In this document: positions 3,675 through 61,497 of the stretch, piece by piece | Layout of the letters: each line of letters starts with the position of its first letter | How positions within the stretch are numbered: position 1 is the stretch's first letter | Assembly: GCF_035084215.1 (NCBI RefSeq) | Contig: NC_090356.1 | Coordinates: forward strand, 17,174,001 to 17,238,000 | DNA: 64,000 nucleotides | Origin: Heptranchias perlo | Taxonomy: Eukaryota | Direction of reading: 5' to 3' | Program-made: the position numbers and the translations under genes | Notes under the pieces: generated by a model | What the model saw: only the letters and a program-made list of their open reading frames with translations | What the model was told of the DNA's origin: nothing | Databases searched by the model: none

Positions 3675-3775
3675 AATTGTGCACCTTCAGCGCATGATTT
3701 TCCATCCATTAAAATTAATAATGGAAAACCAGAAGCTGAGGGTGCACAAATTCATAAAGCAGAAAATCTCTCCCA
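3675..3775. mobile_element. Palindromic MITE remnant
   Basis: ttgtgcaccttcagc...ttttccat pairs with atggaaaa...gctgagggtgcacaa. Confidence 0.45.
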
Positions 3776-28764: not shown

Positions 28765-31698
28765 AAGAACATAAGAAATAGGAGCAGAGTAGGCCACATG
28801 GCCCCTCGAGCCTGCTCCGCCATTCAATCAGATCATGGCTGATCTTTGACCTCAACTCCACTTTCCTGCACGATCCCTATATCCCTTGATTCCCCTAGAG
28901 TTCAGAAATCTGTCTATCTCAGCCTTGAATATATTCAACAAAGTAACCACAGCCCTTTGGGGTAGAGAATTCCAAAGATTCACCACCCTCTGAGTGAAGA
29001 AATTTCTCCTCATCTCAGTCCTAAATGGCCTATCCCTTATTCTGAGACTGTGACCCCTGGTTCTAGACTCTCCAGCCAGGGGAAACATCCTCCCTGCATC
29101 TACCCTGTCGAGCCCTGTAAGAATTTTGTATGTTTCAATGAGATCACCTCTCATTCTTCTAAACTCTAGAGAATATAGGCCTAGTCTACTCAATCTCTCC
29201 TCATACGACAATCCCACCATCCCAGGAATCAGTCTGGTGAACCTTCGTTGCACTCCCTCTATGGCAAGTATATCCTTTCTTCGGTAAGGAGGCCAAAATT
29301 GTACACAATACTCCTGGTGCAGTCTTACCAAGGCCCTATGTAATTACAGTACGATATCTTTACTCCTGTACTCAAATCCTCTTGTAATAAAGACCAACAT
29401 ACCATTTGCCTTCCTAATTGCTTGTTGCACCTGCATGTTAGCTTTCAGTGACTCATGTACAAGGACACCCAGGTCCCTTTAAACATCAACATTTCCCAAT
29501 CTTTCAGCATTTAAAAAATACTCTGCATTTCTGTTTTTCCTACCAAGTGGATAACTTCACATTTTTTCACATTATATTCCATCTGCCATGTTCTTGCCCA
29601 CTCACTTAGCCCATCTATATCCCCTTGAAGCCTCTTTGCATCCTCCTCACAACACACATTCCCACCTAGTTTTGTGTCATCAGCAAACTTGGAAATTTTA
29701 CATTTGGTCCCCTCATCCAAATCATTGATATAGATTGTGAATAGCTGGGGCCCAAGCACCAATCCCTGTGGTACCCCACTAGTCACAGTCTGCCAACCTG
29801 AAAAAGACCTGTTTATTCCTACTCTCTGTTTTCTGTCTGTTAACCAATTCTTAATCCATGCCAGTATATTATCCCCAATTCCATGTGCTCTAACTTTGTT
29901 CACCAACCTCCTGTGTGGGACCTTATCGAAAACCTTCTGAAAATCCAAATACACCACATCCACTGGTTCCCCCTTATCTATTCTACTAATAACAACCTCA
30001 AAGAACTCCAATAGGTTTGTCAAACATAATTTCCCTTTCATAAATCCATTTTGACTCTGCCAAATCCTATTATTATTTTCTAAGTATCCTGTTATCACAT
30101 CCTTTATAATAGATTCAAGCATTTTCCCTACTACTGATGTCAGGCTAACAGGTCTGTAGTTCCCTGTTTTCTCTCTCCCTCCTTTCTTGAATAGTGGAGT
30201 TACATTTGCTACCCTCCAATCTGCAGGAACCGTTCCAGAATCTGTAGAATTTTGGAAGATGACAACCAATGCATCCACTATCTCTATAGCCACCTCTTTC
30301 AAAACCCTGGGATATAGATCCTTAGGTCCTTGGGATTTATTGACTTTCAGTCCCATTAATTTCTCTAGTACTATTTTTTTTTACTAATACTAATTTCTTT
30401 TAGTTCTCATTCTCGCCAGACCCTTGGTTCTCTACTATTCCTGGGAGGTTTTTTGTGTCTTCTTCCGTGAAGTCAGACACAAAGTATTTGTTTAATTTCT
30501 CTGCCATTTCCTTATTCCCCTTATATATTCTCCCGTCTCTGTCTGTAAGGGACCCACATTTGCCTTCGCCAGTCATTTCCTTTTTGCATACCTTCAGAGG
30601 CTTTTACAGTCCGTTTTTATGTTTCTCGCTAGTTTACTCTCATATTCTATTTTCCCTTTCTTTATCAATTTCTTGGTCCTCCTTTGCTGAATTCTAAAAT
30701 GCTCCCAATCCTCAGGCTTACTGCTTTTTCTGGCAACTTTATATGCCTTTGATTTAATACTATCTTTAATTTCTCTTGTTAGCCACAGTTGGACCACTTT
30801 TCCTGTTGGGTTTTTGTGCCTTAAAGGAATATATATTTGTTGCAAATTATGTATTAATTCTTTAAATGCCTGTCTACCGGCATACCTTTTAATGTAGTTC
30901 CCCAATCAACCACAGCCAACTTGCACCTCATACCTTCGTAGTTTCCTTTGTTTAAATTTAAGACCCTAGTTTCAGATTAAACTACATCACTTTCAAACTT
31001 AATGAAGAATTCTATCATATTATGGTCACTCTTCCCTCAGGGCTCCTTTACACCAAGATTATTAATTAACCCTTTCTCATTGCACAATACTAGATCTAAA
31101 ATATCCTGTTCCCTAGTTGGTTCCTCAACATACTGATCTAGAAAACCATCTTGTATACATTCCAGGAACTCGTCCTCCACAGTATTAGTGCTAATTTGGT
31201 TTGCTCAATCTATATGTAGATTAAAGTCCCCCATGATTACTGTATTACCCTTGTTACATGCACTTCTAATTTCCTGCTTTATACCATGCCCGACATTACC
31301 ACAACTGTTTGGTGGCCCATAAACAACTCGTACCAATGTTTTTTGCCCCTTGCTGTTTCTTAGCTCCACCCAAACTGATTCTATATCTTGATCTTCTGAG
31401 CCAAGATCCTTTCTCACTTTGGAATGATCTCATCTTTTATTAACAGCGCTATCCCACCTACTTTTCCTTTTTGACTGTCCTTCCTAAATGTCGAATATCA
31501 TTGAATATTCAGTTCCCAGCCTTGATCACCCTGCAGCCACGTCTCCATAATGACAATTAAATCATACCCATTTACTTCTATTTGTGCCGTCAATTCATCT
31601 ACCTATGTTGTTGGTACCGATATGGACCACAACCTCTAGCTGTTCACCCTCACCCCCAGAATGTTCTGCAGCCACTCAGTGACTCAATTACCCTGGCA
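28765..31698 (-). mobile_element. Long CR1 LINE fragment (endonuclease plus RT, frameshifted)
   Basis: ORFs 31205, 30594, 29511 (YRPVSLTSV, GVPQG.VLGP, FADDTK) and 28852; CR1 tail aagaacataagaaatagg at 28765. Confidence 0.95.
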
Positions 31699-31768
31699 AT
31701 TAGGGATGGGCAATAAATGCTGACCTTGCCAGTGACGCCCACTTCCCTTGAACGAATAAAAAAAAATG
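31696..31768 (+). mobile_element. Isolated 3' tail and poly-A of the 12281 LINE family
   Basis: gggcaataaatgctgaccttgccagtgacgcccacttcccttgaacgaataaaaaaaaa. Confidence 0.8.
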
Positions 31769-32967
31769 TACCCTGCTAGTTACATCCTCAAAAAATTCTA
31801 ATAGGTTTGTACAACACAATTTCCCTTTCATAAAACCATGTTGACTCTGCCTAATCATATTATGATTTTCTAAGTGCCCTGTTACCACTTCCTTAATAAT
31901 GGATTCCAGCATTTTCCCGACAACTGATGTCAGGCTAACTGGCCTGTAGTTTCCTGTTTTCTCTCTCCCTCCTTTCTTGAACAGCGGGGTCACATTTGCT
32001 ACCTTCCAATCCGCTGGGATCGCTCTAGAATCTAGGGAATTTTGGAAGATCGTAACCAATGCATCCACTATCTCTGCAGCCACCTCTTTTAGAACCCTAG
32101 GATGTAGGCCATCAGATCCAGGGGATTTATCAGCTTTTGGAACCATTAGTTTCTCAAGTATTTTTTCTCTACTGATATTAATTACTTTAAGTTCTTCACT
32201 CTCATTAGCCCCTTGATTCCCCACTATTTCTGGTAAGTTTTTTGTGTCATCTACTGTGAAGACAAATACAAAATATTTGTTTAACGCATCTGCCATTTCC
32301 TGATTCCCCATTATAATTTCTCCTGTCTCAGCCTCTAAGGGACCAATGTTTACTTTTGCTATTCTCTTCCTTTTTACATACTTGCAGAAGCTCTTACAAT
32401 CCGTTTTTATATTTCTTGTTAGTTTTTTAGGAAAATATTCTATTTTCTCTTTACCAATTTTTTGGTCGTCCTTTGCTGGTTTCTAAAACTCTCCCAATCC
32501 TCAAGCTTATTACTCTTCTTGGCAACATTATAGGCCTCTTCTTTTAATCTAATACTATCCTTGACTTCTTTAGTTAGCCATGGGTGGATCACTTTTCCCT
32601 GGAGTTTTTATTTCTCAATGGAATGTATATTTGTTGAGAATATTGAAATATTTCTTTAAATGTTTGCCATTGCTTTTCAATGGTCGTACCCTTTAATTTG
32701 GTTTCCCAATCTACCTTAGCCAACTCGCCCCTCATACCTATGTAATTGGCTTTATTTAAGTTTAAGAGTCTAGTTTCTGACTTAAGTTCGTCACTCTCAA
32801 ACTCAATGTGAAATTCTATCATATTATGATCACTCTTCTCCAGAGGACCTCTTACTGTGAGATTACTAATTAACCCTGTCTCATTACATAATACAAGATC
32901 TAAAATGGCCTGTTCCCTGGTTGGTTCCATGATGTATTGCTCTAGGAAACCATCTCGAATGCATTCC
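31769..32967 (-). mobile_element. Second CR1 fragment (endonuclease end to RT start)
   Basis: EPTREQAILDLVL, SDHNMIEF, PRVLKEVA and NYRPVSLTSVVGK (ORFs 32589, 31700). Confidence 0.92.
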
Positions 32968-34932: not shown

Positions 34933-37232
34933 GGCCCGGAATTTGCGCTGAGCAGTGAACAAATGGCACCCACCATTTGTTAGATTTAAACTTACCCACA
35001 AACTATCCACGGGCTTCTGGATGCCAACTTGCTGAAGTGGGGAGCCGGAAAAAGTGCAGCGTCCTCTCCCAGGCATCTGTGAGCTGTGTGAAGGAACTGT
35101 CTGTCCCCTCAAACAATCAGATTGAAGCATCCTTGACAAACCGTGCAGAGTCAGAACCAGGAAGTGCAAGCTACAACAGGAAATTCAATGTAAAATCAGT
35201 TAGAGAAAGCGAAATAAAGAGAGGGTAAGAAATATTTAAATAAAAGATGGAAATAAAAGAGACAAGGAAAAAGTAAAAAAATAAAAATTTAAAATCTTTT
35301 TTAAATGTCCAACAATAATTAAAATCGGAAGGAATGAGACTCCACATTCTTAAAAGTTAATTTTCAGTGCCAGAGGTGGCAATCATTAAGACTTACCACA
35401 CCGTTAAAAGTTAGCTTAGACCTAAAAAAACTGAGGGGAAAAAATTGAATAGGGGCCTGTTGGGGCGTAGCTGGCGTGATGTGCTATTACCCCGCACCCA
35501 ATGGCCCCTATGCAGGCAGGACACAAGTTTTGGCCCACCCGAGGACATACCTGCAAGCAGCGTTCCATTCCAGGCCTTGCACGTGGAATCAGTGCAATTC
35601 GCACTTTCCACCACCAGGGGAGCTCAATCTCTTAAAGGGAGGATGTTTCTTAGAGATCTCTTAAAGGTAGCTGGTACTTGTTATTTGCTGAAAATAACAG
35701 TCTACTGTCTGCACGGAGTCTGAACAGAGATCAGACATCGCACACGTAAAACACAGATGCAGTTGCCATCCCTATGTTTACACGCTGATGAGTTTTGTTA
35801 AAACATTGAATAAAGGTTGCACACTACTAAATCCCACATCCTCCAATCTGCATGCCAGACCTCACCTATCTGCCGATCTGAGTTGGTACCAGGCCTGTGA
35901 GAGTGCATGCACCAAGGTTCTCTGCTGATGTACTAGAGACCTTGGTGCAAGAAGTGGACAGAAGGAGGGACATCCTATATCCGCAGGGGATGGGGGGGGG
36001 GGCAAGAGACATATATCAAAAAGGCAGTGGGAAATCAATGCCAGGCGCACAGCATCATGAACATTGATGCAGTGCAGGAAGAAGTTCAATGCTTTGACAT
36101 GAGTGGTCAAGGTGAGTGAGGTCAACTGTCAAGTGGCGTCTCCTACCAACTGCACCACGCACTACACCCCCCCATCACCCACATACCAACAAACTCACTC
36201 CATCAGTACTCAACTCTTCCCCAAATGCTTCCTCTCACCCTTACATATTACCACTGTTTCAAACCGCCCACCCACAACTCATAGGCCACACACTGGTAGC
36301 TATTCAATCATGACAGGCACGCCATCCAGACATACGTCCCGTTTCTTGCAGGAGAAGGTGGCACATATCAGGAGGCAGCAAGTGGCAGGGGCATTTAGCC
36401 CCTTCAGCCTGTTCTGCCATTAAGTGAGATCATGGTGGACCTGTGCCCTAACTCGATATACCTGCCTTAGCCCTATAACCCTTAATACTCTTGGTTCACA
36501 GAAATCTATCAATCTCAGATTTAACATTCACAAGTGAGCTAGCATCAACTGCTGTTTGCAGAAGAGTGTTCCAAACATCTCCCACACTTTGCGTGTAGAA
36601 GCATTTCCTAACTTCACTCCTGCACGTCCTGGCTCTAAATGTTAGGCTGTGTCCCCGTGTCCTAGTATTCAAGTCTAGGAGACCTCCAAAAATAGTTACA
36701 AATGTCTCCGCAGCCAGAAGCAATAATCCAGCCACTAACCTGTAAATCCTGCATGGTCCCTTTAAATAGCGCTTGTGGGAGGTCCTCCAGGCACTTTAAG
36801 ACAAGTTCAGATGGTCGGGGTTAAGGCTATGCATTGAGTTGAGCCTTAAATACCAAAATGATGTCTATCACTTTAAATCAGCGTTGCACACTGATTGAAG
36901 CCATTTTCTCCCCACTTTACATGATTCAGCGGCGAAACAACAGGCGCTACACGGCTCAATTTAGCGCCCAGTCTGTATCTTTATGTAGATTACTTCATTT
37001 CCAGCTGGGCAGGAGAGCAACTTCGCGCTGGTCCATTCATTCCAACGGGGATCCAGCCAGCGAGCTGTCCTTCCTGCACAGTTTCGAAGGAGCAGGGCAT
37101 CTGATAGAGCAGCTTCCGGATTTCCCTGTTTGACTGCGCGTGTGCATTCGCCGGAAGTTGCTGTACCAGATGCGCAGAAATAACGGTGAACTCTGTTAGC
37201 CTCACCGTTATTTTATGAGCAAATTCCGGGCC
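34933..37232 (+). mobile_element. Harbinger-type non-autonomous element with a Myb/SANT remnant
   Basis: Perfect 14-bp TIR ggcccggaatttgc / gcaaattccgggcc; TSD aat on both sides. 35895-36115 encodes APRFSADVLETLVQEVDRRRDILYPQG...CRKKFNALT*VVK|gtgagt. Confidence 0.82.
36385..36665 (-). mobile_element. CR1 3' fragment nested in the Harbinger element
   Basis: TRTRGHSL...YTQSVGDVWNTLLQTAVDA...SEIDRFL. Confidence 0.8.
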
Positions 37233-37244
37233 AATATAAGTGCC

Positions 37245-39160
37245 AGCGTAGCTCACCTGGTAGCACTGTTCTGAGCTGCAAGTTTGTGGGTTGAAGGCCC
37301 ACTGCACAACTTAGGTACAAAAAATATGTTAACTTACACTACAATGTAGTACTGAGGGAGACTTCCATTGTTGGAGGTTCAGGGGGCGAAATTGTGCCTT
37401 GTAGCATCCGTTATGTAGGCGCTATGCAAACACCTGAGCCCCGAAAATGGCATCCGAGATGCGCATACATAAGTCCGGCGTGACGTGTGCAGGACACCAT
37501 CTTAGTACACCTAACGAACGCCGGCAGCATGTAGAGTAGGGAGATTATGATGTTAATCAGTGTGCAACGCTGATTTAAAGGGACCGCTGCTATTTTGGAA
37601 CTCCACACTCCAGCCAGCGCACTGTCTTAACCTCGCATAGCTAAACAGGTCTTAAAGGCATGGAGGACCCCCCCCCACCAGTGCTATTTAAAGGGATCAT
37701 TCACGAGTTACTGGTTAGTTGCTGGATTATTTGTTCTGGCTGCTGATGCATTTGTACCTGTTTTTGGAGGTTTCCTATACTATATAAAGTTACAATACTC
37801 TACAGGGAGTGGGCTGGCTAGCAGACAGGCAACAGCAAGGGCACTGGCGGAGTGGCAGGGCTGGGACAGGAGTGCTGTCATCCTGAGAGAGGACAGCAGG
37901 TTCATGTTCCATGGAACCACTGCTACTTGCTGCCTCCTGTTATGTGCCACCTTCTGCAAGAAAGCGGCAAGTGTGTCGGTGAGTGTCCTGCAAGATGTTT
38001 GAGTGGTGTGGCTGTCATGATTCAATAGTTGCCAGTGAGTGTGACCTTTGAGTTGTGGGTGTGCGGCTTGCAACAGTGGTAATGTGTGAGGGTGAGATGA
38101 AGCATCCGATTGGGAGAGATGTGTACTGATTGAAAATGTTTGTTGGTAGGTGGGTGATGGGGAATGTAGTGCTTGGAGCAGTGGATGCGACTAGTGGTGC
38201 AGTTGGTAGGATATGCTACTTGACAATTGAACTCACTCACCTTGACCACTCGTGTCAAATCATTGAACTTCTTCCTGCGCTGCATCCATGTTTGTGGTGC
38301 TATGCTCCTGGCATTGACTTTGTCCCCTGCTGCCTCCCACTGCCTCGTGAGCATATGTCTGGATGGCCTCTTGCCACCCTGCTGATACAGGATGCCCCTC
38401 CTTCTGTCCCCCTCTTCCATCAAGGCCTCTAGTGCATCATCCGAGAACCTTGGTGCACGCCCTCTCGCAGGCCCGGTACAAACTCAGATCAGTAGATTGT
38501 CCGGGTCTGGCGTGCAAATTGGAGGATGTGGGATGTAGTTTTGAGAAACCTTTATTCAATATTTTAAAATGCAACAACAGTTTTTAAACTCAACGACGAG
38601 ACCTGCATCTGTGTTTTACTTGTGCAATTTCTGATCTCCGTTCAGACCCGTATCTTATATTTTGAAAATATAAGAGTCCCACAAACTTTGAGCTGCCAAG
38701 TTGTTGCTCATTAAAAATTCCAGAGTTCCCAAAATCACCATTCTTCACTATATTGCAGCACAAATTCACTTCAAAATTGACTTCCACCACTGCTCCCCTT
38801 TAAAAGGTGCAAGCTGCCTTTAAGTGATGCTAACCACTCCTGATATTGGGGCCCCCCTGCTGGTGCATGCAGCCAATCAACAGCACAGGCAGTGCTGGCT
38901 GCACACTGCAATCATTGAAATCATCAGGCAACATGAATGTTACGTGCTGCCTGCATCGCAATCAACTGGTGCGAGTTAATCACGTACCACAATCCCAGCA
39001 CCCGTTTACGGAGCTAACCAATTTAACCCCGCATGAAATGTTAAGCTGGGTCTAAATCTGCCTGCTGTGGTCAGTTTAAAGATCCAATTACATTACTCAA
39101 AGAACAGTATTGCCCTGACAATATTCCTCCCTCAACCAACACCACCAAAAAATGGATTCA
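37245..39160 (+). mobile_element. DeuSINE-type SINE split by a DNA transposon
   Basis: Head and gtactgagggag...ggagg at 37245-37382; the SINE continues at 39031 (atgaaatgttaa...ccctcaaccaacaccacc). Confidence 0.6.
37383..39030 (-). mobile_element. Harbinger-type element with a Myb/SANT remnant
   Basis: Imperfect TIR ggggcgaaattg / caatttaacccc. ORF 38022..38423(-) gives RRRGILYQQGGKRPS...QWEA...RRKKFNDLTRVVK. The interior is homologous, in inverted orientation, to 35700-36930. Confidence 0.72.
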
Positions 39161-47157: not shown

Positions 47158-47466
47158 TGGGAAGAGAGCTAGGCACAAGAATGCCTAGATCTCTTCCCTG
47201 ATCAGCACTCTGTCTCATCTAGTCCCAGGTGCTCAAGCAGGGGGTGTCAGGCAGGAGCCTCTCCTCCAACACAAGGAGATAAAAAGAGACAAATTCATAT
47301 ATGAGGTAAGTCAGGTTTTTAAACTGAAAGCTGCACAATAGGTGTGAGGTGTTTACCGATTACCAAGATATGATGTCATGATGTGGAGATGCCGGTGATG
47401 GACTGGGGTTGACAATTGTAAACAATTTTACAACACCAAGTTATAGTCCAGCAATTTTATTTTAAA

Positions 47467-47505
47467 TTCACAAGCTTTCGGAGGCTTCCTCCTTCCTCAG
47501 GTAAA
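47467..47505 (-). ncRNA. Minimal hammerhead ribozyme motif in pLTR
   Basis: Reverse complement: tttac-CTGAGGA-a-ggagg-aag-cctcc-GAAA-gctt-gtgaa. Confidence 0.75.
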
Positions 47506-47734
47506 TGTTCAGGAGCTCCTCGAAGCCTACGCATTTATACATATAGAACAATACATGGTGTTTACAGAATGCCCCTGCAACTGCCCGTTGCCAAGGCAAT
47601 CACCGTGTTCAGACAGAGAGGTGTCTCCTGCAGAACCCCCGAATACACATTCAACAAAAAAACAAACAGGAAAAAAAACAGAGAGAGGCAGAAACATCCG
47701 GAAGGCAGAGAAAGCCAGCAAATGACCCATTATA

Positions 47735-48692
47735 TTAAAAACAGATAACATTTGTTCGCTGGTGGGGTAACGTGTAGCGTGACATGAACCCAAGATCCCG
47801 GTTGAGGCCGTCCTCATGGGTGCGGAACTTGGCTATCAATTTCTGCTCGACGATTTTGCGTTGTCGTGTGTCTCGAAGGCCGCCTTGGAGTACGCTTACC
47901 CGAAGGTCGGTGGATGAATGTCCATGACTGCTGAAGTGTTCCCCGACTGGGAGGGAACCCTCCTGTTTGGCGATTGTTGCGCGGTGTCCGTTCATCCGTT
48001 GTCGCAGCGTCTGCATGGTCTCGCCAATGTACCATGCTCTGGGGCATCCTTTCCTGCAACGTATGAGGTAGACAACGTTGGCCGAGTCACAGGAGTATGA
48101 ACCATGCACCTGGTGGGTGGTGTCCTCTCGTGTGATGGTGGTATCTGTGTCGATGATCTGGCATGTCTTGCAGAGGTTACCGTGGCAGGGTTGTGTGGTG
48201 TCGTGGACGCTGTTCTCTTGAAAGCTAGGTAATTTGCTGCGAACGATGGTCTGTTTGAGGTTGGGTGGCTGTTTAAAGGCGAGTAGTGGAGGTGTGGGGA
48301 TGGCCATAGCGAGGTGTTTGTCCTCATTGATGACATGTTGAAGGCTGCGGAGAACATGGCGTAGTTTCTCCGCTCCGGGGAAGTACTGGACGACAAAGGG
48401 TACTCTGTTGGTTGCGTCCCGTGTTAGTCTCCTGAGGAGGTCTATGCGATTTTTTGCTGTGGCCCGTCGGAACTGTCGATCGATGAGTCGAGCGTCATAT
48501 CCAGTTCTTACTAGGGCGTCTTTCTGCGTCTGTAGGTGTCCATCGCGTTCCTCCTCGTCTGAGCAGACCCTGTGTATTCGCAGGGCCTGTCCATAGGGGA
48601 TGGCCTCTTTGACGTGGTTAGGGTGGAAGCTGGAAAAGTGGAGCATCGTGAGGTTGTCCGTGGGCTTGCGGTAGAGTGAGGTGCTGAGGTGC
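47735..48692 (-). CDS. Inverted duplicate of the PLE thumb, Cys linker and GIY-YIG region (no RT core)
   Basis: ORF 47735..48727(-) matches the C-terminal ~318 aa of the + ORF except for L>Q (TLKDA to TQKDA). Confidence 0.85.
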
Positions 48693-51025
48693 TTGAGAAA
48701 CTCGGCATCACCACCAGCAACGACCAAGCTTCCCCTGGTACCACGGTTGCAACCACAGGGAAGTCTATTGTCAATTTATCCGACCACACCCTTCAACCAG
48801 ACGAAATCGAAGTTCTCAGCCGAGGGCTCAATTTCTGCCCCACTACCAAAATGGACCCCACTAGTCTCGCGGCGGACACAGAGGAATTCATCAGGAGAAT
48901 GAGGCTCCGGGAATTCTACCACAAACCCCAAGATTTCAGCAGCGAACCCAATGAGACAATCGACGATCCGGAACAGCAGACAGAGGGATCCGCGGTACAG
49001 CAACCGAAGAGGAAAGAGTCAAACTGGACTCCTCCGGAGGGTCGCTGCCCTCAGCTGGACATGTATGCTCAAGCTGTCAGGAAATGCGTCAATGCCAGAT
49101 TCATCAGCCGCACTCAGAAGACAGTCCAGAATGTCACCCGAGCACAACGCAACGCCATCAACGCTCTCAAGACCAACCGCAACATCGTCATCAAACCAGC
49201 GGACAAAGGAGGAGCCATAGTCATACAGAACAGAACAGACTATTGCAAAGAAGCATACCGACAACTGGACAACCAGGAACACTACAGACGGTTACCCGCA
49301 GATCCGACCAAAGAACACACCCACCAGCTCAACAAACTGATCAAGACCTTCGATCCAGACCTTCAAAGCATCCTACGCACTCTCATCCCACGTAATCCCC
49401 GCGTGGGAGACTTCTACTGCCTCCCAAAGATACACAAAGCCAACACACCTGGACGTCCCATCGTATCAGGCAACAGAACCCTGTGTGAGAACCTCTCTGG
49501 ATACATCGAGGGCATCCTGAAACCCATCGTACAGGGAACCCCCAGCTTCTGTCGCGACACTACAGACTTCCTACAAAAACTCAGTACCCACGGACCAGTT
49601 GAACCAGGAACACTTCTCACCACGATGGACGTCTCGGCACTATACACCAGTATCCCCCACGATGACGGCATCGCTGCGACAGCATCAATACTCAACACCA
49701 ACAACAGCCAATCTCCGGAAGCCATCCTACAACTCATCCGCTTCATCCTGGATCACAATGTCTTCACCTTCGATAACCAGTTCTTTACCCAAACACACGG
49801 AACAGCCATGGGGACCAAATTCGCACCCCAATATGCCAACATTTTCATGCACAGGTTCGAGCAGGACTTCTTCACTGCACAAGACCTCCAACCAACACTA
49901 TACACCAGATACATCGACGACATTTTCTTTCTATGGACCCACGGCAAGGAATCACTAAAGAGACTACACGATAACATCAACAAGTTCCGTCCCACCATCA
50001 AGCTCACCATGGACTACTCCTCAGAATCAGTTTCTTTCTTGGACACACGAATCTCCATCAAAGACGGGCACCTCAGCACCTCACTCTACCGCAAGCCCAC
50101 GGACAACCTCACGATGCTCCACTTTTCCAGCTTCCACCCTAACCACGTCAAAGAGGCCATCCCCTATGGACAGGCCCTGCGAATACACAGGGTCTGCTCA
50201 GACGAGGAGGAACGCGATGGACACCTACAGACGCTGAAAGACGCCCTAGTAAGAACGGGATATGACGCTCGACTCATCGATCGACAGTTCCGACGGGCCA
50301 CAGCAAAAAATCGCATAGACCTCCTCAGGAGACTAACACGGGACGCAACCAACAGAGTACCCTTTGTCGTCCAGTACTTCCCCGGAGCGGAGAAACTACG
50401 CCATGTTCTCCGCAGCCTTCAACATGTCATCAATGAGGACAAACACCTCGCTATGGCCATCCCCACACCTCCACTACTCGCCTTTAAACAGCCACCCAAC
50501 CTCAAACAGACCATCGTTCGCAGCAAATTACCTAGCTTTCAAGAGAACAGCGTCCACGACACCACACAACCCTGCCACGGTAACCTCTGCAAGACATGCC
50601 AGATCATCGACACAGATACCACCATCACACGAGAGGACACCACCCACCAGGTGCATGGTTCATACTCCTGTGACTCGGCCAACGTTGTCTACCTCATACG
50701 TTGCAGGAAAGGATGCCCCAGAGCATGGTACATTGGCGAGACCATGCAGACGCTGCGACAACGGATGAACGGACACCGCGCAACAATCGCCAAACAGGAG
50801 GGTTCCCTCCCAGTCGGGGAACACTTCAGCAGTCATGGACATTCATCCACCGACCTTCGGGTAAGCGTACTCCAAGGCGGCCTTCGAGACACACGACAAC
50901 GCAAAATCGTCGAGCAGAAATTGATAGCCAAGTTCCGCACCCATGAGGACGGCCTCAACCGGGATCTTGGGTTCATGTCACGCTACACGTTACCACACCA
51001 GCGAACAAATGTTATCTGTTTTTAA
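48689..51025 (+). CDS. PLE reverse transcriptase plus Cys linker plus GIY-YIG endonuclease (778 codons; the native start is probably lost)
   Basis: KPADKGGAIV, FYCLPKIHK, MDVSALYTSIP, GTAMGTKFAP, RYIDDIFF, LYRKPTD, PCHGNLCKTC, NVVYLIRC...YIGET...RMNGH; no stops. Confidence 0.95.
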   Translation: MLEKLGITTSNDQASPGTTVATTGKSIVNLSDHTLQPDEIEVLSRGLNFCPTTKMDPTSLAADTEEFIRRMRLREFYHKPQDFSSEPNETIDDPEQQTEGSAVQQPKRKESNWTPPEGRCPQLDMYAQAVRKCVNARFISRTQKTVQNVTRAQRNAINALKTNRNIVIKPADKGGAIVIQNRTDYCKEAYRQLDNQEHYRRLPADPTKEHTHQLNKLIKTFDPDLQSILRTLIPRNPRVGDFYCLPKIHKANTPGRPIVSGNRTLCENLSGYIEGILKPIVQGTPSFCRDTTDFLQKLSTHGPVEPGTLLTTMDVSALYTSIPHDDGIAATASILNTNNSQSPEAILQLIRFILDHNVFTFDNQFFTQTHGTAMGTKFAPQYANIFMHRFEQDFFTAQDLQPTLYTRYIDDIFFLWTHGKESLKRLHDNINKFRPTIKLTMDYSSESVSFLDTRISIKDGHLSTSLYRKPTDNLTMLHFSSFHPNHVKEAIPYGQALRIHRVCSDEEERDGHLQTLKDALVRTGYDARLIDRQFRRATAKNRIDLLRRLTRDATNRVPFVVQYFPGAEKLRHVLRSLQHVINEDKHLAMAIPTPPLLAFKQPPNLKQTIVRSKLPSFQENSVHDTTQPCHGNLCKTCQIIDTDTTITREDTTHQVHGSYSCDSANVVYLIRCRKGCPRAWYIGETMQTLRQRMNGHRATIAKQEGSLPVGEHFSSHGHSSTDLRVSVLQGGLRDTRQRKIVEQKLIAKFRTHEDGLNRDLGFMSRYTLPHQRTNVICF

Positions 51026-51254
51026 TATAATGGGTCATATGCTGGCTTTCTCTGCCTTCCGGATGTTTCTGCCTCTCTCTGTTTTTTTTCCTGTTTGTTT
51101 TTTTGTTGAATGTGTATTCGGGGGTTCTGCAGGTGACACCTCTCTGTCTGAACACGGTGATTGCCTTGGCAACGGGCAGTTGCAGGGGCATTCTGTAAAC
51201 ACCATGTATTGTTCTATATGTATAAATGCGTAGGCTTCGAGGAGCTCCTGAACA

Positions 51255-51293
51255 TTTACCTGAGGAAGGAGGAAGCCTCCGAAAGCTTGTGAA
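51255..51293 (+). ncRNA. Minimal hammerhead ribozyme motif in pLTR
   Basis: tttac-CTGAGGA-a-ggagg(aag)cctcc-GAAA-gctt-gtgaa: core CUGANGA/GAAA, 5-bp stem II, stem I tttac/gtgaa. Confidence 0.78.
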
Positions 51294-51347
51294 TTTAAAA
51301 TAAAATTGCTGGACTATAACTTGGTGTTGTAAAATTGTTTACAAGAT

Positions 51348-51572
51348 ATGATGTGGAGATGCCGGTGATGGACTGGGGTTGACAATTGTAAACAATTTTA
51401 CAACACCAAGTTATAGTCCAGCAATTTTATTTTAAATTCACAAGCTTTCGGAGGCTTCCTCCTTCGTCAGGTTCTTTCACATCGTTCACCTGACGAAGGA
51501 GGAAGCCTCCGAAAGCTTGTGAATTTAAAATAAAATTGCTGGACTATAACTTGGTGTTGTAAAATTGTTTAC
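51348..51572. mobile_element. ~225-bp non-autonomous palindromic pLTR element
   Basis: Tail, then 85-bp arms 51388-51472 and 51488-51572 around a 15-bp spacer. The outer TSD gattaccaagata is at 47358-47370 and 51573-51585. Confidence 0.92.
51485..51523 (+). ncRNA. Minimal hammerhead ribozyme motif
   Basis: ttcac-CTGACGA-a-ggagg(aag)cctcc-GAAA-gctt-gtgaa; stem I ttcac/gtgaa is perfect. Confidence 0.8.
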
Positions 51573-51638
51573 GATTACCAAGATAGGCTAATGAATTTCT
51601 TATTGTCTACAGTCATTAGGGAAACAACTTCAAAGCCT

Positions 51639-51865
51639 TAAAACAAAAGCAAAATACTGCATTTGCTGCAAATCTGAAATAAAAGCAGAAAATGCCGGAA
51701 TACTCAGCCGATCAGGCAGCATCTGTGGAGAGAGGAACAGAGTTAACATTTCAGGTCGATGAGTTCTGACAAAAGGTCATCGACCTGAAACGTTAACTCT
51801 GTTTCTCTCTCCACAGTTGCTGCCTGACTGGCTGAGTATTTCCAGCATTTTCTGTTTTTAATTTC
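51639..51865. mobile_element. Second-family palindromic element (probably PLE-derived) with a hammerhead-like motif
   Basis: Arms tgaaataaaagcagaaaatg...caggtcgatga and tcatcgacctg...ttttctgtttttaatttca; left-only tail; direct repeat ttcaaagcct at 51629-51638 and 51863-51872. Confidence 0.85.
51761..51799 (+). ncRNA. Hammerhead-like motif, core mutated (CTGACAA)
   Basis: gagtt-CTGACAA-a-aggtc(atc)gacct-GAAA-cgtt-aactc; same spacing as 51485. Confidence 0.65.
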
Positions 51866-52126
51866 AAAGCCTAGCTTATTAGCATTTTAACTACCTTTCA
51901 TCTCAGGGCCTTTTTTAAAAACTTGTGTGAATACACTTGGCTTTAAAACACATATCATAAATGCATCCCTTTTTTTAATACTTTTTGTGGGAAAATTGAC
52001 AAAACACTCCCACACGTAACAAGCACACTGTCTCACTTCTTTTCCACACACAATATAACCCTTAGATCTCTCTCAGGATCAGCATGCCGTCTCGCTGTTC
52101 CATTTAACATACAATATAAACCTACA

Positions 52127-56239: not shown

Positions 56240-57900
56240 CAATGACTTCTACATAAATAAGATGAAAGTTTTAGACAGGCTAAAAGAGCTCAAAACAATA
56301 TGTCCCCAGAGATGGATGGTATTTATCCCAGAGTGCTGAGAGAGACCAGAAAGAAGATTTCTGTGGCACTGACAACCTTTATAAGTGAGTCACTGCGCAC
56401 TAGTGGGATACCAGAAGATTGGAAACATGATAACGTGGTGCCCATATTTAAAAACAGACAGAGGCAACTAGAGACCCATTTCATACTATACAAAATAATG
56501 GAGTTGATTATCAGGAGTACATTTGAGGATTATCTGTACAATAATTTAGAAAACAACAATCATTATAGATTCAGAAGGGAAAGATCCTGCCTGCCTGACA
56601 AACTGCTCCAATGAAGTGACGACTCAAGTGGACTGTGGATCGTCCTGTGTTGACTTCCAAAAGGTATTTGATAAAATTCCACAAAAAGGCTGTTAGTTAA
56701 ACTCAGTGTGTTAGGGATTTAGGGTAAACTCTGAGAATGGATAAATAATTGGCCGTAGAGTGGAAAACAATGAGTGCTTGTGAAAGGAGTTATGTTAGGG
56801 TGGGAGAAGGGCTGAGTGAGGTTCCCCAGGGATTGGTGTTGAGACCATCACGGTTTCTAATTTACATAAATGATCTGGATTTAGAAACTGAATGCAGTGT
56901 GGTCAAATCTGCAGATAATACCAAACTAAGGGAGGCAGTGGATTTAGAGGAGACAGCTCAGAAATTAGAGAAAAAGTTGGATAAAATACATTAGTGGGTA
57001 AAAAAGTATCAGATGAAATTTAGTGGAAATAGATTAAATTTAGTACAGACAAATGTAAAGTACAAAGAAAAAATAAGTAATAGATTTACTCCATGAATGG
57101 TATTGCAATAGCTAACGATGAAACTGAAAGAGACCTAGGATTCTTAGTAGACTCGACACTCAACAGGGGTCATTTTAACTTTGGGCAAAGGTGTAAAATG
57201 GCTGATATCGAATTGACCACTCGTTATACACCACATTTGATTTTCTTTTCCATTTAAGTCAATAGAAGGGAAAATTGGGAAAGGTGTAGAATGGGCAACC
57301 AATTCCATATCGCCTGTTTTACACAATCGCCCAAAGTTAAAATTACCCCCAACATGTTCAACCAATGCACAACAGCAATCAATAAAGCCAATGGAATGTT
57401 GAACTACATAACATCGACATTAGAATACAAGTTGACCAAACTGCATAGTGCTCTGGTCAGATTGCACCTTGAGGACTGCATCTGATTTTGGTTGCTGAGG
57501 CATAAGGGAGACATTCACATGCTAGAGGCAGTGCAGAAAAGAGCCACAAGATCCCTAGTGTCAAAGGTCTGAGTTTGGAGGAGAGACTAGAGAAATTTAG
57601 GCTTTTTAGTATGGAAGGGCAGTGTCTGAGAGATGGTTTTAGAGATATACAAGCTAGTTAAGAGAACAGAAAAGGTAAATCTGGAATATTACTTTATGTT
57701 AAATACTGACAATAGGACAAGGGGACATACGTTCAAACTTGTAAAATGTGATTTTAGGACTGAAATCAGGAAATTCTTCTTCATACAAAGATTGAACAAC
57801 ATATGGAACGGACTTCCAGGAAGAGTAGTGGAAAAAAACTCTGGAATCTTTTGAAACAATTGGATGCTGTAATGAGGGAACTTTAGCATCTTTCTGGATG
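56240..57900 (+). mobile_element. Old CR1 LINE fragment in VWA1 intron 1
   Basis: SPEMDGIYPRVLRE, VPQGLVL..FLIYINDLD, LVRLHLEDC and RTRGHTFKL. Confidence 0.85.
57165..57350. mobile_element. Palindromic MITE inserted into the CR1
   Basis: ggggtcattttaactttgggc / gcccaaagttaaaattacccc; flanking duplication aac (or caaca). The TIR resembles that of 24424-27036. Confidence 0.82.
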
Positions 57901-59251: not shown

Positions 59252-59343
59252 TTCACCTGACGAAGGAGCAAAGCTCCGAAAGCTTGTGATTTCAAATAAA
59301 GCTGTTGGACTATAACCTGGTGTTGTGCGACTCCTTACATTTG
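59252..59343 (+). mobile_element. Solo pLTR end of a related PLE variant with a hammerhead motif (59252-59290)
   Basis: ttcac-CTGACGA-a-ggagc(aaa)gctcc-GAAA-gctt-gtga, followed by tggactataacctggtgttgt as in the 51.5-kb family. Confidence 0.82.
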
Positions 59344-59495: not shown

Positions 59496-60005
59496 TCGAG
59501 GCGTATGAATATTTTCTTGTACCCTTTAGTCCTGTACTCCTGTCCAAGTTGTTTACTTCCATCTCCTCCTCATTTTTCATTATCTTAAAAATCTGGATGT
59601 CTCTCCTCTGTCTTTTCTCCAGCAAAAATAAGCTTAGCTACTTGAGTCTTCCTTTATTACTTAGTCCCCTAAGGCCTGAAACCGCCCCAGTCACTCTTTC
59701 CTGAACCCTATCTAATGCATTAATATCCTTTTTGAGGTAGGGATATCATACTCCAGAACTGGCCTCATTGTTGATCTCTACAATGCCAGGATAACTTGTT
59801 CTGACTTGTAGTACAACGCTTCTCACAGTCACTCTCACATCCCAACGTTTTAATACACGTATCATTTGTAACATTTGTCAAACATATAGTGACTCTCCTA
59901 GAATCTAGAACTGTGAAAACAGTAAAATTAATCCACAGATTGGTTATCATTGTACAGTTATGCCTTTATTCTCATTTAATCTGTTGTTTTCTCCCCTTCC
60001 CCCAG

Positions 60006-60569
60006 GGGCTGAACACTCTATACAGGATGCAGAAGGAGACCTACTCTTCTTGATGGACGGTTCTGGAAGTATTTTACCCTATGAGTTCACCAGATTGAAA
60101 GAGTTTGTTGTTGATTTACTGACGCCATTCACCATAGGTGCCAGTGATGTGCAGGTTGGCTTTCTGCACATTAGTGATGACCCAGTGGTGGAGTTTCCGT
60201 TTAATAAGTACATGTCGGACACTGCTGTACAGTGGGCTCTTCTGAACATGAAGCAGAAACTGGGAGACACCAATACTGGCAAGGCACTGTCTCATGCCAA
60301 AGACACCATGTTCACACAGAAAGCAGGTGCCAGACCAGATGTCCCAAAGGTCTTGGTGTGGCTGACAGATGGGGTATCATCAGACGACATATCACAGCCC
60401 ATCCAGCTCCTCAAGGAACTCGGGGTTACAATTTTCGTTGTTAGCACAGGGAGGGGCAATTACATTGAACTGAAGGCTGCAGCTAGTGAACCATCAGAAA
60501 GCCACCTGTATTACGTAGATCCCGATGATATGTATGTTATTACTGAGGAGCTGCGTAACGAAATTCTAG
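60006..60569 (+). CDS. VWA1: VWA1 exon 2, von Willebrand factor A domain
   Basis: Acceptor ttctccccttcccccag|, donor |gtatgt; 564 nt, phase 1-1. GDLLFLMDGSGS (MIDAS DxSxS), GDTNTGKAL, GARPDVPKVLVWLTDG and VSTGRGNY.EL.AAAS.P.E.HL closely parallel vertebrate VWA1/WARP. Confidence 0.93.
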
Positions 60570-60683
60570 GTATGTTCATGTTACAGTCATCACTTCCATA
60601 CAATTGTTTTCAGCTGGGGTTAAGGTACTTTCTCCCAATCCCTTTATCTTCACCATCTGTCATTGGGGGGAGCAGAACTACCT

Positions 60684-61497
60684 CTCAGCTCTGTGACTGG
60701 GGAGAGGGCGAGCAGTTCCCAGGGCACTGTGTGTGCAATTCTGTGACTGGGGAGGAGGTGAGCAGCTCCCAGGGCAATGTTTGTGCAGCTCTGTGACTGG
60801 GGAGGGGGCAAGCAGCTCCCAGGGCACTGTTTGTGCAGCTGTGTGACTGGGGAGGAGGCAAGCAGCTCCCAGGGCACAGTGCGCGCAGCTATGTGACTGG
60901 GGAGAGGGCGAGCAGCTTCCAGCGCTCTGTGTGTGCAGCTCTGTGACTGGGGAGAGGGCGAGCAGCTCCCAGGGCACTGTGTGTGCAGCTCTGTGACTGG
61001 GGAGAGGGCCAGCAGCTTCCAGCGCTCTGTGTGTGCAGCTCTGTGACTGGGGAGGAGGCGAGCAGCTCCCAGGGCACTGTGTGTGCAGCTGTGTGACTGG
61101 GGAGAGGGCGAGCAGCTCCCAGCGCTCTGTGTGTGCAGCTCTGTGACTGGGGAGGAGGCGAGCAGCTCCCAGGGCACTGTGTGTGCAGCTCTGTGACTGG
61201 GGAGAGGGCGAGCAGCTCCCAGCGCTCTGTGTGTGAAGCTCTGTGACTGGGGAGAGGGCGAGCAGCTTCCAGCACTCTGTGTGTGCAGCTCTATGACTGG
61301 GGAGGGGGTGAGCAGTTCCCAAGGCACTGTGTGTGCAGCTCTGTGACTGGGGAGGGGGTGAGCAGTTCCCATGGCACTGTGTGTGCAGCTCTGTGACTGG
61401 GGAGAGAGCGAGCAGCTCCCAGCGCACTGTGTGTGCAGCTCTTTGACAGAGGTGGGAGAGGGCGAGCAGTTCCCAGGACTTTGTGTGTGCAGCTCTG
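60684..61497. repeat. 50-bp minisatellite, about 16 copies, in VWA1 intron 2
   Basis: gtgactgg recurs exactly every 50 nt from 60693 to 61400; unit ctgtgactggggagagggcgagcagctcccagggcactgtgtgtgcagct. Confidence 0.95.

Follow-up and report, generated by a model that had tools for sequence, protein, structure and literature searches.

The 64-kb window analysed here (Heptranchias perlo, RefSeq assembly GCF_035084215.1, contig NC_090356.1, positions 17,174,001 to 17,238,000; all coordinates follow the numbering of the window, and counts of exact repeats cover both of its strands) carries a long and a short copy of one retroelement family nested into each other between 47358 and 51585. On balance we find it likely that two ordinary insertions of this young shark family of Neptune-type Penelope-like elements (PLEs) reused one favourable site. 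The copies are delimited by two interlocked target-site duplications (TSDs). The outer one, GATTACCAAGATA, is found at 47358-47370 and 51573-51585 of the plus strand (13 bp, or 14 bp with an ambiguous C at 47357) and brackets the whole complex, its right copy being followed by a host GG. The inner one, AAGATATGATGT (47365-47376 and 51343-51354, plus strand, 12 bp), brackets the long copy alone. It is composed of six host-derived nucleotides and of the first six nucleotides of the short copy, a hairpin, and its right copy is followed by a GG that derives from the element. Both repeats are exact and occur twice in the window, without any occurrence on the minus strand, which agrees with the way they were first reported in a preliminary description of this DNA. 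Their maximal extents reach 14 bp (outer) and 13 bp (inner) because the C that precedes each left copy is identical to the last base of the element. For one given place, an exact 13-mer match has a chance probability of 2.6e-8.

The anatomy of the locus forces the order of the two events: the hairpin of 224 bp inserted first, creating the 13-bp outer TSD, and the copy of 3,966 bp second, across the left junction of the hairpin, creating the 12-bp inner TSD. The reverse order was rejected because the right copy of the outer TSD is complete at 13 bp, a state that could not have arisen after a prior insertion of the long copy. The inner junction is a tail-to-tail join of two 3′ ends around the host-derived hexamer, and the 12-bp inner duplication is in line with the other TSDs of the family (13 and 12 bp). 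The preliminary description had likewise placed a hairpin of ~225 bp first and the long copy later at its left junction, and these three observations bear it out. The bottom nick of the second event falls on a strand that was synthesised during the first, which was therefore essentially complete beforehand; the interval between the two insertions may have been minutes or generations.

Under a single complex event, the extra tgatgt on the left would result from stuttering or from a tail templated further, and the inner hexamer would be filler whose match to the host is fortuitous. Some junction bases are compatible with it, as only three of the six host-like nucleotides are strictly diagnostic (P 0.017) while the rest can be templated by the element, and two of the six left nucleotides match the start of the open reading frame (ORF) for certain, a Thr at codon 2 being compatible. 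Templated read-through from the ORF start was nevertheless rejected: the window would have to read M-T-S, whereas the family ORF begins with M-T-T in two relatives (P0121 and P0122). The tail-to-tail join would moreover need a primer duplex between two cDNA starts, and both the CC of the second target (see below) and the 12-bp length of the duplication would have to be coincidences. Two insertions are favoured by a rough likelihood ratio of 1e4, in which one factor of 10 is assumed, and we regard a single event as scarcely credible.

The long copy (47377-51342) consists of a 41-nt tail (47377-47417, minus strand), an inverted 5′-truncated arm of 1,275 nt (47418-48692, minus strand; core of its minimal hammerhead at 47500) and a forward portion of 2,650 nt. 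The latter carries an uninterrupted, 5′-truncated ORF of 777 aa (48692-51025, plus strand) and a 3′ untranslated region that includes the end of the pseudo-long terminal repeat (pLTR; 51026-51342, plus strand), with a minimal hammerhead (core at 51260) and no tail. The ORF codes for a reverse transcriptase (RT) domain (Pfam RVT_1, 40.5 bits for a cut-off of 29.6), a CX4CX2C linker finger and a GIY-YIG endonuclease (Pfam E 4e-4; 21.1 bits, slightly below the cut-off of 22.6). The GIY-YIG residues Y, G, R, H, H, E and N and the finger that precedes the endonuclease are invariant in the six sequences aligned, and the protein of the window has two Cys between the motifs (CCHH). Its best matches are Heptranchias perlo proteins (93-94%), then Scyliorhinus (85%). 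Comparison with P0121, identical at 132/132 residues, shows that 125 N-terminal residues are missing from the ORF, so that the long copy cannot be a source element; it also has no direct upstream pLTR and is, judged by its sequence, non-autonomous. The earlier label of “coding element” thus holds for the RT/GIY-YIG frame and fails for the autonomy of the copy. The other label, “Penelope element”, has to be replaced. The invariant finger before the endonuclease marks the element as Neptune-type by the criterion found in the available text of PMC8557442, a CX2-5CxxC finger between RT and endonuclease (EN) in the Neptune clade, and membership of the Penelope/Poseidon clade, defined by the absence of a linker finger, was rejected. 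With respect to Nematis, the placement with Neptune is provisional.

A search of the PDB with the protein gave no relatives, and none of 246 tblastn hits of 120 homologues against the window fell outside this locus, so no other coding fragment was found. An isoform model of the Heptranchias perlo gene epn2 (P0022) contains ~260 residues that are 95% identical to this family, which suggests that an intronic copy was absorbed into the gene model. The hammerhead of the pLTR was identified by our own motif scan and by folding, both of which display the core, stem I and stem II; its cleavage is a prediction. The Rfam search returned 14 sub-threshold matches, mostly microRNA hairpins, with no hammerhead among them.

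The arms of the long copy differ at five positions (47626, 47721, 47765, 48503 and 48525). All five are transversions; CpG transitions are absent in spite of the 68 CpGs of the arm (P 0.001-0.01). Three are coding, two of them synonymous and one turning a conserved Leu into Gln in the inverted arm. This pattern is better explained by errors of the RT or of the consensus, or by two templates, than by ageing. Being unlike ageing, it would also suit an assembly artefact in which alleles or paralogous copies were wrongly joined. The only run of N in the window lies within a sister hairpin at 18.8 kb, a sign that the assembly struggled with this family, and the accessible part of PMC8557442 warns of such problems. 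The junctions, in contrast, are locus-specific: the left one is anchored in unique flanking sequence and the inner one contains the host-derived bases in register. The length and motif of the TSDs fit the family, and a misassembled interior would not give rise to the junctions. We consider an artefact very improbable as the origin of the nested structure, the small remaining risk concerning mostly the interior.

The short hairpin (51349-51572) is formed by a 39-nt tail (51349-51387), a left arm (51388-51472), a 15-nt centre (51473-51487) and a right arm (51488-51572; hammerhead core at 51490). Its arms are identical at 85/85 bases. One variant of the hammerhead core is present on both arms of the long copy and the other on both arms of the short one, and the two copies were therefore copied from different RNAs. 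The short copy has two diagnostic bases and a centre found nowhere else in the window. The preliminary description saw in it the element's own non-autonomous hairpin; it does belong to the same family, from a slightly different template. Its centre shares 6 nt with the end of the tail. A role of this centre as a circular template or as a site of re-initiation was rejected, as the match is limited to those 6 nt with mismatches on either side. In miniature inverted-repeat transposable elements (MITEs) and other DNA transposons both terminal inverted repeats directly adjoin the TSD; the short copy cannot be assigned to them, since the 39-nt tail intervenes between its left arm and the TSD. Nor is it a non-LTR retrozyme, whose definition requires two or more units in tandem that each carry a type I hammerhead, because its units are inverted.

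Translation of the tail gives HHRHLHIM, and the same residues stand just before M-T-T in P0121. The tail therefore ends at the start codon, whose reverse complement occupies 47377-47379, and the CA at 47377-47378 represents two templated bases that open the long copy. The tail sequence occurs three times in the window. Its third occurrence belongs to another copy of the family at 18823-19105 (18811-19117 with its TSDs), whose tail is on the left, whose TSD is 12 bp long (18811-18822 and 19106-19117) and whose length and subfamily are hidden by the 169 N at its centre (18899-19067). All three copies combine a tail of 39-41 nt on one end with a TSD of 12-13 bp. The third one is the sole independent control in the window; with three young copies in 64 kb, the shark genome probably holds many.

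The reconstructed targets are CC-N13-GG for the hairpin, CC-N12-GG for the long copy and GC-N12-GG for the copy at 18.8 kb. We infer six nick positions from them, and the half-sites that follow begin with GG in five cases and with GC in one. Five GG out of six were obtained in 29 of 200,000 random triples at that offset and in 332 of 200,000 at any of 13 offsets; for the three top nicks alone, where microhomology provides no explanation, P is 0.005. The CC of the first target is given by the host flank at 47350-47357 (plus strand), which is made of a 7-nt match to the right end of the element and one extra C. In the second target the GG was brought by the hairpin and the CC by the host TSD. 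It would thus be the first insertion that completed the second target, which explains that the site became usable, and targeting of pLTR ends, as proposed before, is not needed. When an allele with the hairpin alone is modelled, it shows three CC-N12/13-GG matches, of which the used site is the only one to lie at a junction. A match to CC-N12/13-GG is also present within each tail (approximately at 47394-47410, 51364-51380 and 18838-18854), a possible self-target.

These features can be arranged in a scheme for the favoured reuse of one site by two insertions. The GIY-YIG endonuclease would make two nicks, one per strand, that are 12-13 bp apart and that each lie 5′ of a GG (CC-N12/13-GG), the motif being presumably read by the protein. 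Both 3′ ends would then prime reverse transcription, helped by pairing of 1-3 nt. One cDNA would start at the ORF start codon, yielding the tail of 39-41 nt, and the other ~40 nt upstream in the pLTR, at a site that sits in a stem-loop by folding; joining of the two cDNAs head to head would give the inverted structure between TSDs. The first event would have made the hairpin, with the second host CC kept inside the duplicated site and the hairpin's own GG 12 bp away as a new target. A later, probably independent event from a slightly different RNA would have used this completed target.

Several points weigh against this reading. The signature is drawn from three insertions at two loci, was noticed post hoc and includes one GC half-site, and the bottom nicks may be displaced outward by one base. 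With 359 sites in 64 kb, CC-N12/13-GG is a frequent motif, and taken alone it makes junction hits no more likely (6e-4 versus 7.5e-4 per insertion). The two insertions cannot be told apart in age. The only in vitro system in the literature accessible to us, the Poseidon element PAc of Anolis carolinensis, belongs to a different clade and has a preference for ATT within AT-rich DNA (PMC11167929). Finally, the three flanks on the side without tail agree with the beginning of the cDNA, at an offset of +1, in 15/21 positions (7, 5 and 3 of the first 7 nt), as did 19 of 200,000 triples unconditioned and 37 of 200,000 conditioned on GG, GG and GC, and a bare GG rule does not explain this match.

The flank match is an argument for homology- or RNA-assisted targeting, in which the family would prefer sites that resemble its own end without tail, the RNA of that start site maybe pairing with the strand beyond the nick, so that ends like those of the element, and this host flank with them, would be selected actively. 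The match remains at 8/14 (P 0.019) when the site that prompted the comparison is left out. Two of the three flanks overlap at this locus, however, and the one independent site, at 18.8 kb, matches in 3/7 positions (P 0.18). The second insertion struck the tail end and host sequence and not the end without tail, and a longer preference read by the protein predicts the same pattern. The preliminary description had invoked microhomology priming at gtttac (47351-47356; 7 nt with 47350). The extra C at 47357 separates this match from the TSD and shifts it by one base relative to the real junction, so it is not priming homology; the resemblance of the flanks to the element end stands, with the 15/21 match. 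A TSD of 21 bp primed on tgtttac was rejected, as it would need a later loss of 1 bp and departs from 12-13 bp. The homologies at the junctions themselves are short: alignments leave 1, 3, 1, 1, 1 and 2 ambiguous nucleotides at the six junctions (P 0.008 for at least 1 at all of them, P 0.045 for the sum), which lends modest support to pairing of 1-3 nt at priming. Targeting by homology seems unlikely to us, and the flank match may stem from a longer enzyme preference, from RNA pairing or from a chance 7-bp repeat in this flank. A combination of the two ideas, a symmetric double nick at CC-N12/13-GG with RNA pairing just beyond the no-tail nick helping to choose the site, is in our estimate rather improbable. 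If true, the tail GG of each insertion would complete new targets, giving regenerating hot spots and nested chains, and target choice would be assisted by RNA in a class of retroelements whose one in vitro system showed no such assistance.

The rarity of a junction hit (~7e-4 per insertion) favours yet another view, that the two events were coupled in one cell, a second ribonucleoprotein re-nicking the fresh junction minutes to hours after the first insertion. Both copies have the same orientation and are equally pristine, with identical short arms that show one diagnostic difference from the long arms, and complex tandem and inverted PLE insertions are common according to the available text of PMC8557442. 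The two copies come from different RNA templates, however, and the position of the second bottom nick implies that the first event was essentially finished. Chance alone yields 0.24-90 such nestings genome-wide if a genome of 3-5 Gb with 1e4-1.5e5 copies is assumed, so that one case is no proof of targeting. We rate coupling as unlikely. Interlocked TSDs arise whenever an insertion spans a junction, and as such do not demonstrate targeting. The locus gives no proof of the targeting of pLTR ends put forward in the preliminary description, one nesting being within chance and the usability of the site being explained by the CC..GG that it shares with the unrelated site at 18.8 kb. The signature accounts for the site being usable, not for its being sought.

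Other repeats are found in the window. An older, different hairpin at 51629-51872, ~45 bp downstream, has arms that are 87% alike, an extension on the left, a 10-bp direct repeat (51629-51638 and 51863-51872) and a centre that looks, by eye, like a degenerate hammerhead. It has the same build but lacks CC..GG flanks, and therefore probably belongs to another family. An inverted repeat at 22.3 kb is similar to it by eye. The latter is among further degenerate local inverted repeats with arms 70-78% alike (3677-3749, 22292-22438, 36672-37781 and 57166-57349). A solo pLTR end at 59252-59326, starting near stem I, is more diverged (86-88%) and keeps an intact minimal hammerhead motif. RT fragments of another type of retroelement lie on the minus strand at 29514-30380 and 31703-32482; from their resemblance they are probably CR1-type long interspersed nuclear elements (LINEs). 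An open frame at 59909-60793, ~8 kb downstream of the complex, codes for a von Willebrand factor A domain (Pfam VWA, E 1e-40) and is probably an exon of a host gene.

In LINE-1 twin priming both nicked strands prime cDNA, and the two non-overlapping pieces are joined in an inversion between TSDs. The scheme proposed above is alike in its double priming and differs in that both pieces start at the 3′ end and duplicate it. Inverted pLTRs, one-sided tails, TSDs, PLE-in-PLE nesting, opposite-strand hammerhead pairs and PLE-derived retrozymes are already described. The architecture and nesting seen here are thus of known kinds, the symmetric target signature being a new and thinly supported lead. 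Neither a GG target signature, nor a junction-nested PLE, nor this shark family was found in the literature covered, which left out most subscription papers as well as Repbase and Dfam.

The element resembles the Neptune-type EN+ PLEs presented in the available text of PMC8557442 by its C-terminal GIY-YIG with CCHH and its CX2-5CxxC linker finger, as well as by its inverted 5′-truncated copy, tail of 30-40 bp at one end and pLTR hammerhead. The same text connects the linker finger with the targeting of microsatellites; none of the three targets found here is a microsatellite, and they share CC/GC-N12/13-GG. The insertion of Pen2a into Pen3 in Adineta vaga (PMC3846280, in its accessible part) is likewise a PLE within a PLE with inverted pLTRs, a one-sided tail (31 bp) and TSDs (8-10 bp). 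Pen2a entered an internal N-rich segment of another family in opposite orientation, whereas the long copy here lies across a junction; the authors of that paper put forward self-priming on antisense RNA. Pairs of minimal hammerheads on opposite strands, 100-700 bp apart, are described in the portion of PMC4209133 available, and the animal non-LTR retrozymes (bioRxiv 10.64898/2026.07.22.740005, part seen) are, like the short copy, short PLE-derived pieces with minimal type I hammerheads. Retrozymes are tandem repeats, whereas the short copy is an inverted pair probably formed at insertion. PMC9977147 and PMC8969392, in the parts accessible, provided general background only.

The closest experimental counterpart is PAc, for which the available text of PMC11167929 reports that both strands are nicked and extended in vitro, that two internal RNA start sites bound the tail, that a stem-loop is present at the start site and that a dimer is predicted. 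The three copies of the window fit two start sites that bound the tail, one of them in a stem-loop, and a two-site initiation of the Poseidon kind is what we infer, by analogy, for this Neptune-type family. In PAc the hammerhead contains the ORF start, and initiation takes place ~111-118 nt inside the reading frame, whereas in the window it is at the start codon that the tail ends; PAc showed no homology at initiation, and 1-3 nt are found here. This locus ties the end of the tail to the start codon, offers a testable target signature and, as a clean footprint left in vivo, is consistent, in a second clade, with the in vitro results for Poseidon.

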